A DNA stretch of 32,706 nucleotides from Burkholderiales bacterium (GCA_037478575.1 JBBFMG010000001.1:1787-34492), one strand, 5' to 3'; counted from the first letter of the stretch, positions 18,070 through 27,016 are shown. Translations and numbers: made by a program. The notes: generated by a model from the letters alone, not told the origin.

Positions 18070-18926
18070 GAGACGACAGACCGCCTCGACATAGGCCAGG
18101 CGGTTGGCAGACGACCCGCAAGCTTGGCGCCGTCTCCCTTTGGGCAAGCCGGGCCGACTGACAGCCGCCGACAAACGGAATTATGGACACTGGCCCGTGT
18201 GGGCAAACTCATTGCCCACGAATTCGGGCCCTCATACAGCAACATCCATGTCATGCGCCTGTTGGGCGAACTGGGATTCTCCTGCCAGAAACCGTAGAAG
18301 CGCGCGCTGCAGCGCGACGAGGCCGCCATTGCCGAGGGGAAGGCCAAACGCTGGCCTCTGTTCAAAAAAAACCCGGCGCGAGGGGCGCACCGTTGTCTTC
18401 ATCGACGAATCGGGATTGAGCGAACGGCCTACCCGGGTGCGCACCTGGGCGCCCAAGGGGCAAACCCCGGTGCTGCCATACAGCTTCACCTGGCAGCCGC
18501 TCGCCCCCATTGCCGGCGTGACCTTCTGGAACTTCTGCTTCCGGCTCTTCCCCGGCAGCATCAAGAGCCCACAGCTGGTCGAGTTTGTGAGCGCGCTCAT
18601 GCGCCAAGGGCAGGCTGCTGATCGTCCGGGACGGCTTCAAGGCCCACAAGAACCGGTTGGTGCGCGACTTCGTCGAGTCCCAGGGAGACCACATCGTCCT
18701 TGACTGTCTGCCGGCCTACGCGCCGGAACTCAATCCGGTCGAGTATGTCTGGGGCTATCTCAGGAACCGGGAGATCGCCAACTGGTGCGCCGCGAATCTC
18801 CATGAGGTCGGCGACTTCGCCCGGTGCCGGCTCAAATCCATGCAGCGCCGCCCCAAGCTGGTCTCCGTATTCTGGAAACAGGCGGAATTGCCGATCGGAT
18901 GTCATCTAGTTACGTAACACTCAATA
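18070..18926 (+). mobile_element. Degraded IS630-family element (transposase pseudogene, left end missing)
   Basis: HTH remnants (RQTAST*ARRL; ELWTLARVGKLI...LGFSCQKP*KRA), A8 slippery run 18364-18371, DDE motifs FIDESG, TWAP-G-TP, LPAYAPELNPVEYVW; in-frame stops and frameshifts; ends at TA 18925-18926. Confidence 0.88.
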
Positions 18927-19370
18927 GGTCTTGTACGGCAGGAATTTCCCGCTCATTACGATCTTCACCCGATCGCCCTTGGGATCCGACTGGCGCTGGA
19001 TGTCCATGCTGAAGTCGATGGCGCTCATGATGCCGTCTCCGAATTCCTCGTGGATGAGCGCCTTGATGGTTGTGCCGTAAACCTGGATCAGCTCGTAGAA
19101 GCGGTAGATCAGCGGGTCGGTGGGCACGGCCGTGGGCAGCGAGCCCTTGTACGGCACCTCCTGCAGCTTCTCTACGGCCTCTGCCGGCAGATCCAGCAGC
19201 TTGCCGATGACGGTGGCCTGCTCCTTATCGAAAGTCATCTGGCCCATCAGGCCGGCGGTCGTCCATTCCTTACTCTGGCCGACCTCCTTAGCGATATCCG
19301 CAAAAGTCAGGCCTTTCTTCTTTTTGGCGGAAAGGATCATTTCGGTAACATCTGTGCGGTTCATGCTCAT
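18921..19370 (-). CDS. cynS: Cyanate hydratase (cyanase)
   Basis: PTDPLIYRFYE, IHEEFGDGIMSAIDF, GKFLPYK. Confidence 0.98.
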   Translation of the reverse strand: MSMNRTDVTEMILSAKKKKGLTFADIAKEVGQSKEWTTAGLMGQMTFDKEQATVIGKLLDLPAEAVEKLQEVPYKGSLPTAVPTDPLIYRFYELIQVYGTTIKALIHEEFGDGIMSAIDFSMDIQRQSDPKGDRVKIVMSGKFLPYKTY

Positions 19371-19413
19371 AGCTCCTTGCGTCTTGAATTTGGTTTGGAC
19401 TTGCTCTTTGGTT

Positions 19414-20346
19414 TCACTCGTTCACCAGGTGGAGGTTGGGTTTGGTCCCCCGCGGGGGCTCGGCCTCCGTGGCAGTCTCGCCCAGAGGCTTCTCGCTCAG
19501 GCCTGGCGTCACATGCGGCGGATTCATCGTGTCGTAGCCGGCTGTGGCTTCAGCGGTGAACTGTTTTGAGCGCGTCACCAGGAAATCCACCAGATGGTTA
19601 CGGATGCGATAGTACTGGGGGTCCTTGTGGATGGCGTGGCGGCTGCGCGGACGCGGCAGGGTGTTGACCACGATCTCGGCGATCTTCGCATTCGGCCCGT
19701 TGGTCATCAGGATCACCTTGTCGGAGAGCAATATCGCCTCGTCCACGTCGTGGGTGATCATGAACACGGTCTGGTGCGTCTCGGCCCAGATCTTCAGGAG
19801 CTCGTCCTGGATCACGCCGCGGGTCAGCGCATCCAGTGCGCCGAAAGGCTCGTCCATCAGCAGCATCTTCGGCTCGATGGAAAAGGCGCGCGCGATGCCC
19901 ACCCGCTGCTTCATGCCACCAGAAAGCTCAGCCGGCTTCTTGTGCTCGCTGCCGGTGAGACCGACTAGGTCGATGTACTTCTGGCAGTGGGTGCGCACGG
20001 CATCCCCCTTGATGTCCGGGTAGCGCGCCCTCACCGCGAACTCGATGTTCTTCCTCACCGACAGCCATGGCATGAGCGCGTGGCTTTGGAACACCACGCC
20101 GCGGTCCAGACTCGGCCCCTTTACTTCGCGCCCGTCCATGAGCACCACGCCGGAACTGGCCTCCTCCAGCCCTGCCAGTACATTGAGGAGCGTGGACTTA
20201 CCGCAGCCGGAGTGTCCGAGGAGGCAGACGAACTCACCCTTGGCTATGCCGAAGTTGATATTGTCGAATACGGTCAGGGCCTTGCCGCCGCGCGGAGCCG
20301 GATAGACCTTGCCCAACCGCTCTACCTTGAGAAAATCCTTGTGCAT
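19414..20346 (-). CDS. Cyanate/nitrate-type ABC transporter ATP-binding protein (CynD/NrtD-like)
   Basis: GHSGCGKST, LSGGMKQR, LLMDEPFGALD, ITHDVDEA, MTNGP. Confidence 0.93.
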   Translation of the reverse strand: MHKDFLKVERLGKVYPAPRGGKALTVFDNINFGIAKGEFVCLLGHSGCGKSTLLNVLAGLEEASSGVVLMDGREVKGPSLDRGVVFQSHALMPWLSVRKNIEFAVRARYPDIKGDAVRTHCQKYIDLVGLTGSEHKKPAELSGGMKQRVGIARAFSIEPKMLLMDEPFGALDALTRGVIQDELLKIWAETHQTVFMITHDVDEAILLSDKVILMTNGPNAKIAEIVVNTLPRPRSRHAIHKDPQYYRIRNHLVDFLVTRSKQFTAEATAGYDTMNPPHVTPGLSEKPLGETATEAEPPRGTKPNLHLVNE

Positions 20347-20355
20347 GTCGTTCCC

Positions 20356-25193: not shown

Positions 25194-25239
25194 ACTGTCG
25201 TTGCGCCATGCCGTTCCGGCATGGCGCCCATAGGAAGGA

Positions 25240-26394
25240 ATGATCATGCAGGCAAAAGCACGCACTTCCCGCCCCCCGCTCGGGGCGGAAGCATTACCCG
25301 GACTGGGCGAGCTTATCCGCACCGAGCTCGCGCCCAAGACCGCCGACATCGATCTCAATGGCGAGTATCCCGCAGCCTTCATGCGCCGCCTCGGCGAGCT
25401 GGGCGGCTTTGCCGGCGCCGTGTCGCTTGCCCACGGCGGCCAGGGTGCCGGCCTGTCCCAGGTGATTCGCGTCATCAGCCAGATATCCGAGGAATGCATG
25501 TCCACCGGCTTCCTCGTCTGGTGCCAGACCGCCTGCGCCTGGTATCTGGAAAACACCGTCAACGACGCGCTGCGTGCGCGCATGCTGCCGCTGGTGGCCT
25601 CTGGAAAAGTGCTCGCCGGCACCGGCCTGTCCAACCCCATGAAGGCCTGCGCCGCCATTGAGGAAGTGCGGCTCAAGGCCGAGCGCGTCAATGGCGGATA
25701 CCGCATCAACGGCACCCTGCCCTGGGTGTCCAACATCGGCCCCGGCCATGTGTTCGCCTGCGGCGCCGGCGTGGCGGGCGAGCCCGGGCTGCTGGTGAGC
25801 CTGGTGTCCTGCGACGCGCCCGGCATGACGCTCAACCAGAATGCGCACTTCGTCGCGCTAGAAGGCAGCAACACATTCGCCTGCCAGTTTCGGAATGTAT
25901 TCGTCGCTGACGCCGACGTGATCGCGCATCCGCGCGAATTTGTCGGGTTCGTCACGCGCATTAAGGCCGGCTTCATCCTGGCGCAGATGGGGATGGGGGT
26001 GGGGCTGGTCAGGGCTTGTGTGGAGATGATGGTGCAGTCCAACAAAACCCTGGCCCATGTCAACCGCTTCATCGACGACCAGGCAGAGGACATCGAACAG
26101 GAGCTTACCCGCGTTGAGTGTCTCACCTACGCCCTGGCCGACGCAGCCTACGCCCAGCGCGACGACGCGCGCCTGCGCGAAGTGCTGGAGCTGCGCATCG
26201 CCGGCTCCGAGCTGGCGCTCAGGGCCGCCAGTGCGGCCATGCTGCACTTGGGGGCCAAGGGCTACCTGCTACGCAACCCGGCCCAGCGCCGGCTGCGCGA
26301 GGCCTACTTCATCGCCATCGTCACACCCGCCATCAAGCATCTGAAGAAAGAGCTGTACGACATGGAGCACGCCAGCGTCTGCTGCGCGGCGTGA
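25240..26394 (+). CDS. Acyl-CoA dehydrogenase-fold flavoprotein, atypical
   Basis: GGYRING-LPWVSN, LHLGAKGY, QRRLREA; lacks the usual IYEGT catalytic Glu; C-terminal CCAA. Confidence 0.85.
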   Translation: MIMQAKARTSRPPLGAEALPGLGELIRTELAPKTADIDLNGEYPAAFMRRLGELGGFAGAVSLAHGGQGAGLSQVIRVISQISEECMSTGFLVWCQTACAWYLENTVNDALRARMLPLVASGKVLAGTGLSNPMKACAAIEEVRLKAERVNGGYRINGTLPWVSNIGPGHVFACGAGVAGEPGLLVSLVSCDAPGMTLNQNAHFVALEGSNTFACQFRNVFVADADVIAHPREFVGFVTRIKAGFILAQMGMGVGLVRACVEMMVQSNKTLAHVNRFIDDQAEDIEQELTRVECLTYALADAAYAQRDDARLREVLELRIAGSELALRAASAAMLHLGAKGYLLRNPAQRRLREAYFIAIVTPAIKHLKKELYDMEHASVCCAA

Positions 26395-26423
26395 TGTAAG
26401 CGACTCAAACAGGAAAGAAGCCA

Positions 26424-26825
26424 ATGAAAACATTCACCGTCAAACTCGATGTGAACAAGACCGTCAGCCGCCTGAGCGAAGCCGTGGCGGACTTCCCCAT
26501 GGGCCTGGTGGCCCACATCAATGGCCAGGCCAACTGCGCCAAGCGCGGCGTGCAGGTGCCGGCCGACCAGATCCTGGAAGTCTTCCGCCCGGATTTCGCG
26601 GTGCGGGTATGGAAGGCGGAAAAGGCGGCCGGCATCGACATCCCGCTGCGCATCCACTGCTACGATGCCGGCAACGGCCACACTACCGTGGCGTTCCGCA
26701 CAGCGCAGGAAGTCTTCGCCCCCTACGCCAACCCGGACCTCGACAAGATCGGGCATGAACTCGATGTCATCTTCAACGAGCTGCTGAACACCCTGCAGCC
26801 CTACCTCGCGAAGGAGGCCGCATGA
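26424..26825 (+). CDS. DUF302-like protein
   Basis: [26 protein letters not shown] pattern; AGGAAAG upstream; stop overlaps the rubredoxin ATG. Confidence 0.75.
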
Positions 26826-27016
26826 CGACCGCAACGGCAACGCAGGTGGCCTACCGCCGCTGGATGTGCATGGTCTGCGACTATGTGTACGACGAGGCCC
26901 TGGGCGATCCGGAGCACGGCCTCGCGCCGGGCACCCGCTTCGAGGACATTCCGGACGATTGGGTCTGCCCGGATTGCGGGGTCGGTAAGGACGACTTCGG
27001 CCTGCTCGACGAATAA
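26822..27016 (+). CDS. Rubredoxin
   Basis: [49 protein letters not shown]. Confidence 0.96.

Follow-up and report, generated by a model that had tools for sequence, protein, structure and literature searches.

A candidate thiocyanate-cleaving module of an acyl-CoA-dehydrogenase-fold flavoprotein and an OsmC-like protein beside cyanase genes in a Burkholderiales bacterium

Gene content and promoters of the locus

The window analysed here is a stretch of 32,706 nucleotides from a Burkholderiales bacterium (GCA_037478575.1 JBBFMG010000001.1:1787-34492). The unit under study occupies positions 18921-27016 (Table 1), where the gene of a sigma-54-dependent activator separates two operons: an ABC importer with the cyanase gene cynS on the minus strand and, on the plus strand, the genes of an OsmC-like protein, a flavoprotein with acyl-CoA dehydrogenase (ACAD) fold, a DUF302 protein and a rubredoxin. 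The flavoprotein and its thiol partner form a candidate module for the cleavage of thiocyanate. Gene identities were assigned by Pfam and NCBIfam profile searches, for which 38 of the 227 open reading frames (ORFs) of the window were scanned, and all nine genes named by an original prediction from the sequence were recovered in their places and families.

Table 1. Features of the unit at 18921-27016, in window coordinates
Feature	Position	Strand	Evidence
cynS, cyanase	18921-19370	-	PF02560; TIGR00673 186 bits, cut-off 113
ABC ATPase, NrtD/CynD type	19414-20346	-	TIGR01184 314 bits, cut-off 292
ABC permease, NrtB/CynB type	20356-21195	-	TIGR01183 220 bits, cut-off 209
Periplasmic anion-binding protein, CmpA/NrtA/CynA type (type A)	21198-22556	-	PF13379 (NMT1_2); 26% identity to scn-operon binding protein
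Sigma-54 -24/-12 site TTGGCATGGAACGTGCT, transporter-cynS operon	22623-22639	-	GG-N10-GC spacing correct, two mismatches
TGTTAACA palindrome, predicted activator box	22662-22669		Centre ~-54 of minus promoter
GAF + sigma54-AAA+ activator	22877-24460	+	NifA-like; TIGR01817 468.8 bits, cut-off 528.85
TGTTAACA palindrome, predicted activator box	24474-24481		~-125 of plus promoter
Sigma-54 -24/-12 site CTGGCACGGCAGTTGCA, osmC-flavoprotein operon	24575-24591	+	Perfect TGGCAC-N5-TTGC match
One-cysteine OsmC-like protein, predicted sulfur acceptor	24651-25193	+	PF02566; Cys88 and Ser163 invariant
ACAD-fold flavoprotein without catalytic Glu	25246-26394	+	Profile, predicted structure, alignments
DUF302 protein, accessory	26424-26825	+	PF03625
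Rubredoxin, stand-alone in the window	26822-27016	+	PF00301; NF045768 89.8 bits, cut-off 90

The two sigma-54 sites that had been predicted on either side of the activator gene proved to be real. The plus promoter, CTGGCACGGCAGTTGCA, is the single perfect match to TGGCAC-N5-TTGC in the whole window, and with one mismatch allowed the five matches are at chance level (3.6 expected). The minus promoter, TTGGCATGGAACGTGCT, was not listed by the pattern search because it has two mismatches; it would not stand alone, and is supported by homologous loci and by a common box. Equivalent sites precede the gene of the binding protein in five loci (L001, L047, L052, L053 and L072). The palindrome TGTTAACA has three copies in the 2.32 Mb genome, and two of these lie upstream of the two window promoters, as a predicted common activator box. 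The distance of the plus box is usual for a putative site of this kind, and that of the minus box is unusually close. A survey of 27 genome loci with the GAF activator found a sigma-54 site before osmC in 22/27 and the TGTTAACA box in 12/27, while the box precedes the gene of the binding protein only in the window and L001.

The activator falls below the cut-off of the NifA model and was not assigned to NifA. Stand-alone cyn operons beside the module have an activator with a PAS domain in all three cases scanned, in contrast to the GAF type of the module. This difference suggests that the GAF protein may sense something other than cyanate. The contrast is drawn from stand-alone cyn operons of relatives and not from CynF itself. 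The left half of the unit matches cynFABDS in layout: the cluster of Pseudomonas pseudoalcaligenes CECT5344 (PMC6627978) likewise has a divergent sigma-54 activator and the same gene order (binding protein, permease, ATPase, cynS), and cynA is preceded by a sigma-54 site, as is the binding-protein gene here. In contrast, glutamate synthase and hemE flank that cluster, an OsmC/flavoprotein operon is absent there, and it is the window activator that has a second promoter. Laboratory E. coli K-12 also possesses a cyanase (PMC6627978).

The flavoprotein and its thiol partner

The structural model of the flavoprotein has a three-domain ACAD fold (pLDDT 93.5; Foldseek TM 0.85). Among solved structures it is nearest to isovaleryl- and short-chain ACADs (Z 42.6, rmsd 2.5, 360 aligned residues, 20-24% identity), and the protein passes no NCBIfam cut-off, the closest model giving 63 bits against a cut-off of 600. 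The canonical ACAD base is either a glutamate of the JK loop (MCAD type) or a glutamate of helix G (IVD/LCAD type), and both positions are covered by residues 353-367 and 239-255 in alignments to IVD and MmgC, which are gapped around helix G. Among 127 flavoprotein homologues, Asp or Glu was found at 353-367 in 0/127 and at 239-255 in 1/127. The prediction that this is no ordinary acyl-CoA dehydrogenase was thus upheld by the loss of the base at both positions. In contrast, membership of the DszC/SfnB monooxygenases, which had been put forward at the same time, was not supported, since both families are among the weakest matches (SfnB, TIGR04022, 30.6 bits, cut-off 430.9; DszC, NF043015, 23.1 bits, cut-off 850) and the ACAD-fold sulfur enzymes TdsC (Z 36.5) and AcdA (Z 38.6) rank below the top ACAD by fold. 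DszC/TdsC, SfnB and the desulfinase AcdA resemble the flavoprotein in applying the ACAD fold to non-dehydrogenase chemistry on sulfur; however, the partners in the window are a thiol protein and rubredoxin, and no flavin reductase gene is among the recurrent neighbours of the flavoprotein loci, where rubredoxin-reductase fusions are found instead. The flavoprotein is not a member of thiocyanate dehydrogenase (TcDH), ScnABC, DszC/SfnB or the true ACADs.

Seven residues are invariant in the 127 homologues (S129, N130, K133, E139, Q247, E352 and K364), and the two lysines would suit a small anion. An Fe-S site like that of 4-hydroxybutyryl-CoA dehydratase was rejected, the cysteines of the WCQTAC motif being present in only 111/127 and 85/127 homologues (Z 20.5). 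An essential role for Cys84 was likewise rejected: it is present in 127/127 homologues, and most proteins of a sister clade, described below, do not have it. The family is large, with 2669 matches among the 7998 candidates scored, and its distribution is patchy: 8/300 genomes in the class, 26/401 in the order and 19/401 in the phylum. The order count leaves out one distant match. The match in G517 (L071, 32%) belongs to the sister clade and was left out of the counts and placed among the 375 negatives, and G217 stood outside the class scoring.

Flavoprotein loci were mapped in sampled genomes, in the best 80 of 552 metagenomic matches and in 8 of 30 plasmid-collection records, 139 loci in all, and locus statistics were restricted to the 71 loci flanked on each side by 5 kb or more. 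A thiol protein accompanies the flavoprotein in 71/71 of these, OsmC in 60 and an AhpD-like CMD protein in 11. The 60 OsmC loci contain cynS in 32, an anion-binding protein in 53 (type A in 40, a second type, B, in 17), a sigma-54 activator in 36, rhodanese in 20, DUF302 in 17 and a persulfide-dioxygenase-like metallo-beta-lactamase protein in 4. Rubredoxin or a rubredoxin-reductase fusion is present in 38/60, three of the 38 being weak, distant matches, and in many homologous loci, such as L018 of Marinobacter, rubredoxin is fused to an NADH reductase. The 11 CMD loci have cynS in none, rubredoxin in 10 and an importer in 5. Since only the thiol partner is constant and the other genes vary, the module core is two genes, flavoprotein and thiol protein, and the four-gene form of the window is a minority. 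DUF302 and rubredoxin, predicted as fixed parts of a four-gene operon, are therefore not such parts, and DUF302 in particular was discarded as a core component on its count.

The two kinds of partner differ in their cysteines. The OsmC-like protein has one invariant cysteine (91/91): Cys88 and Ser163 are both invariant, and the serine lies in a C-terminal SPV motif, at what we take to be the usual position of the second cysteine of OsmC/Ohr proteins. The peroxidatic and resolving cysteine pair of two-cysteine OsmC/Ohr peroxidases was not found in this protein. The CMD proteins have CxxC and a third cysteine in 20/20. On the flavoprotein tree (all trees were made with FastTree only), CMD replaces OsmC at least four times, and all 19 CMD rows are without cynS and without an activator in the locus. 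No sigma-54 site was found before the first gene of the CMD-type loci (0/10).

Cyanase, importers and sulfur starvation

Genome-wide, cynS is present in 34/38 OsmC-type genomes and in 0/8 CMD-type genomes. Within one sample of 401 genomes of the order, it was found in 16/19 OsmC-type genomes, 0/7 CMD-type genomes and 73/375 genomes without the flavoprotein, a background that includes the unpublished G323. The predicted tie between this operon and cyanase, put to a neighbourhood and profile check, thus stands for the OsmC type (34/38 versus 73/375), but not for the CMD type, which is free of cyanase. Forms of the module without cyanase are found in contexts of sulfur starvation.

In a congener that also carries the module (G648), a further cynS gene lies within a complete thiocyanate hydrolase operon (TIGR03887 399 bits, cut-off 291). 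This scn operon (L200, G648:C29:8000-26000, 4446-15052) comprises cbiM, cynS, a methyltransferase, the scn subunits, an ABC importer, DsrE and SQR, which is the layout described for Thiobacillus thioparus (PMC5328954). Its binding protein shows 41-58% identity to the 33 type-B proteins encoded in the neighbourhood of the flavoprotein (at a distance of 6 kb in one case); the identity to 51 type-A proteins is 23-29%. In a tree, this scn protein falls within a clade of 97% support together with 19 of the type-B proteins. A search of 391 control genomes for scn/type-B proteins gave 15 places: 2 by the module flavoprotein, 10 by its sister clade and 3 by sensor kinases. All five further plasmid records examined, of 46, carry a flavoprotein of such a kind beside an scn-type binding protein.

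The flavoproteins of the sister clade have 26-31% identity to the window protein and the same SNxMK and RxRExxF..TP motifs, and occur with CMD. In loci L204-L218, the sister clade has a CMD or DUF4242 (SCO4226-like) partner, a type-B importer and often an AraC regulator, with no cynS within about 6 kb; the hosts are Agrobacterium, Variovorax, Bartonella, Thermomicrobium and Synechococcus (plasmid pANL). In three other loci (L201-L203), genes of scn/type-B binding proteins immediately precede those of hybrid sensor histidine kinases and no transporter accompanies them, possibly as a thiocyanate-sensing two-component system.

The cyanase-free forms point to sulfur. The Neisseria CMD protein directly upstream of the flavoprotein is NafA (NMB0995), as identified by peptides printed in PMC3128610, and the gene order in N. 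gonorrhoeae is CMD, flavoprotein and rubredoxin. One N. gonorrhoeae record of 2.17 Mb (L021, NZ_CP119140.1), though listed as a plasmid, is probably a chromosome. In N. meningitidis, depletion of cysteine raises NMB0995 7.2-fold, which ranks it fourth among 90 up-regulated genes and higher than any cys gene; NMB0994, matched to the flavoprotein by its ACAD-family annotation, is raised 3.5-fold (PMC3553081, Table S1). In the same data, cysK rises 5.5-fold and the cys genes 5-6-fold, and sodB 2.6-fold, with sodB, sodC and prx at 2-2.6-fold (PMC3553081). In a genome without cynS (L190:4586-8920), the flavoprotein gene is directly upstream of a family 2A encapsulin, its cargo cysteine desulfurase and a CysE-like gene. 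On pANL of Synechococcus elongatus, a sister-clade flavoprotein (SYNPCC7942_RS13440; 27%) and a type-B importer follow cysK, and this plasmid has a region under the control of CysR and sulfur (PMC11420160, PMC8049743). Taken together, the forms without cynS look like sulfur-scavenging systems. Neither the NafA operon nor the pANL region has cynS or a sigma-54 activator in its locus, unlike the window, and the passages on NafA in PMC3128610 describe it as an anti-aggregation factor only and give no enzymatic role.

Searches of the host genome covered 2.32 Mb, 96.6% complete. Among the scanned ORFs, the window is without the families of thiocyanate hydrolase, nitrilase and rhodanese, as had been predicted. 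The nitrile hydratase-alpha/ScnC family was not found genome-wide, with the same search positive in 15/47 genomes, including the scn gene of G648, and NitC was not found in the host genome. Rhodanese domains gave 11 matches genome-wide, none on the contig of the window, and a crude Tat-motif scan of the genome for TcDH-like proteins gave five ORFs. The genome has soxB and RuBisCO. Six sequencing runs contain most of the stretch (four labelled hot spring, one sediment and one viral), and three of them may be its source; no RNA run containing the window was listed.

The unit is bordered on the left by a broken IS630-like transposase (18104-18917, DDE_3 in two frames), which abuts the cynS stop, and is followed directly after the rubredoxin gene by a DUF938 methyltransferase-like gene split over two frames (27026-27564, minus strand). 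Further out lie a trio of DUF2157, DUF4401 and GDYXXLXY membrane proteins (15051-17822, minus strand) and, on the plus strand at 27794-30039, the genes of a trypsin-like serine protease and, next to it, of a membrane protein with an FHA domain.

Proposed pathway and alternatives

A substrate that would give cyanate to some hosts and sulfur to others, and that is taken up by scn-type import, is most simply thiocyanate. The kinship of the type-B and scn importers, the link to cynS and the sulfur-starvation contexts of the cynS-less forms make it the best candidate, in agreement with the prediction, and the substrate is probably thiocyanate, as these lines of genomic evidence suggest with modest confidence. 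On balance, we favor a reading in which the module flavoprotein would cleave thiocyanate oxidatively to cyanate and a persulfide on Cys88 of OsmC, and cyanase would convert the released cyanate to ammonia, under sigma-54 control. The GAF activator would sense the substrate and fire both promoters under sigma-54, and the ABC importer would take up thiocyanate, recapture cyanate, or do both. The flavin would then oxidise the sulfur of thiocyanate, in the simplest case with O2 to give HOSCN, while rubredoxin and a reductase would supply the electrons, and Cys88 would form Cys-S-SCN, which would be hydrolysed to cyanate and the persulfide. The sulfur may pass to rhodanese, persulfide dioxygenase or Sox and, in hosts without cynS, to cysteine synthesis. 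This exact HOSCN/persulfide chemistry is rather unlikely to hold in every step, and the scheme is open to either O2-dependent S-oxygenation or flavin-linked dehydrogenation. In the host of the window, with its soxB and RuBisCO, the role of the module would be nitrogen scavenging.

The module would resemble two known routes of thiocyanate cleavage in part. The two characterised thiocyanate-cleaving enzymes are from sulfur-oxidising lithotrophs, and TcDH is a periplasmic, Tat-exported copper beta-propeller of lithotrophs, about 500 residues long. By analogy, the module may work like the cyanate pathway of TcDH, with the same proposed products, cyanate and zero-valent sulfur; in contrast to TcDH, however, the flavoprotein has the ACAD fold and sigma-54 control of an assimilatory type. 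ScnABC of the Thiobacillus thioparus type (PMC5328954; L200) likewise combines cyanase, a NitT/TauT ABC importer and the sulfur-relay proteins DsrE and SQR, but the enzyme is a cobalt nitrile-hydratase-like protein that yields COS and ammonia, is unrelated to the flavoprotein and has no homolog in the host genome.

Several points weigh against this reading. First, the importer argument is indirect for the window because its own importer is type A, with 26% identity to the scn binding protein; type A is also the commoner (40/60 versus 17/60 OsmC loci), and the argument hangs on a single scn operon, the cargo of its transporter being a presumption. The module and scnABC occur together in G648, where they would be redundant. 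As for cyanase, cynS is missing from 4/38 OsmC-type genomes, 73/89 cynS genomes of the order sample are without the module, and close relatives inflate the genome counts (two genera contribute 6 and 5 genomes). The proposed electron supply is hard to account for, since rubredoxin is missing from about one third of the OsmC loci and from the sister clade; the host genome also has no clear rubredoxin reductase (best 36% over 185 residues). Many loci do without rubredoxin, which makes the redox chemistry the least secure part of the mechanism. The window is also without rhodanese. Finally, the authors of the Neisseria study also interpret cysteine depletion as oxidative stress (PMC3553081), and the pANL flavoprotein gene itself is at most a putative member of the CysR gene set.

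The explanation that survives best beside thiocyanate cleavage is that the module releases cyanate by degrading another small anion with nitrogen and sulfur (or selenium), possible examples being a thio- or dithiocarbamate, an isothiocyanate-thiol adduct, a thiourea oxide and selenocyanate. The links to cynS and to sulfur starvation need only a substrate with nitrogen and sulfur that yields cyanate, and two different importer families serve the module. However, the binding protein of the scn operon groups within the type-B family, and no hydrolase or catabolic gene for a carbon skeleton recurs in the loci, the annotated neighbour clusters being unrelated housekeeping genes. We regard this explanation as unlikely, and still as the strongest of the alternatives.

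A protective function is quite improbable. OsmC, AhpD-like proteins and rubredoxin are well known from stress responses, and the thiol protein, flavoprotein and rubredoxin might repair or avert damage by cyanate, hypothiocyanite or peroxide and merely be co-regulated with cyanase; cysteine depletion causes oxidative stress (PMC3553081), and NMB0995 rises in blood (PMC3382141). This does not agree with the dedicated importer at 53/60 OsmC loci, and at cynS-less loci too, or with an OsmC that is without the resolving cysteine of a peroxidase. Moreover, the induction in Neisseria is on a par with the cys genes and not with sodB, sodC and prx, and the 73 cynS genomes without the module manage without such protection.

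It is very improbable that the flavoprotein is a cyanide monooxygenase, which would form cyanate from HCN, O2 and two electrons while rhodanese helped to trap cyanide. Such an enzyme has long been postulated and is undemonstrated (PMC11049912; PMC5939895); rhodanese is present in 20/60 OsmC loci, and a Nit1C nitrilase cluster lies near one metagenomic locus (L112). That locus has the Nit1C nitrilase with a radical SAM gene and a TauE sulfite exporter (5775-8005; 11354-12091) within about 4 kb of the flavoprotein. However, HCN needs no importer, hosts without cynS would gain nothing, the sulfur-starvation induction and placement would be left unexplained, and the host has no NitC. Cyanide, named as a possible substrate in the original prediction, is thus disfavored by the importers and the sulfur-linked neighbours. 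Least credible of all is an ordinary acyl-CoA dehydrogenase that lies by chance beside a cyn operon, which would fit the closest solved structures but not the low identity to them, the missing base at either catalytic position, the profile score of 63 bits, the lack of recurrent beta-oxidation or electron-transfer-flavoprotein genes and the constant link to a thiol partner.

Our analysis raises the possibility, which we place somewhat short of probable, that an ACAD-fold flavoenzyme with a cysteine sulfur carrier represents a third, unrecognised class of thiocyanate-cleaving systems. It would serve assimilation throughout the Proteobacteria, its sister clade extending to cyanobacteria and Chloroflexi, and would have a nitrogen form with sigma-54 control and cyanase and a sulfur form with an AhpD-like partner and no cyanase. 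A search of the full-text literature, which left subscription journals and older scanned papers outside, brought up no account of the module. Growth of heterotrophs on thiocyanate as a nitrogen source is long established (PMC5328954), and the module, which occurs in some 3-6% of sampled proteobacterial genomes (8/300, 26/401 and 19/401), supplies named candidate genes for this use. If the proposal is true, it would mean new chemistry for the ACAD fold, with relevance to the treatment of thiocyanate wastewater, and would give a metabolic function to NafA and to the sulfur-regulated pANL genes of Synechococcus. S. elongatus may itself draw sulfur from thiocyanate under CysR, although a literature search gave no confirmation of this. 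NafA and its operon would then let mucosal Neisseria feed on host thiocyanate as a sulfur source.

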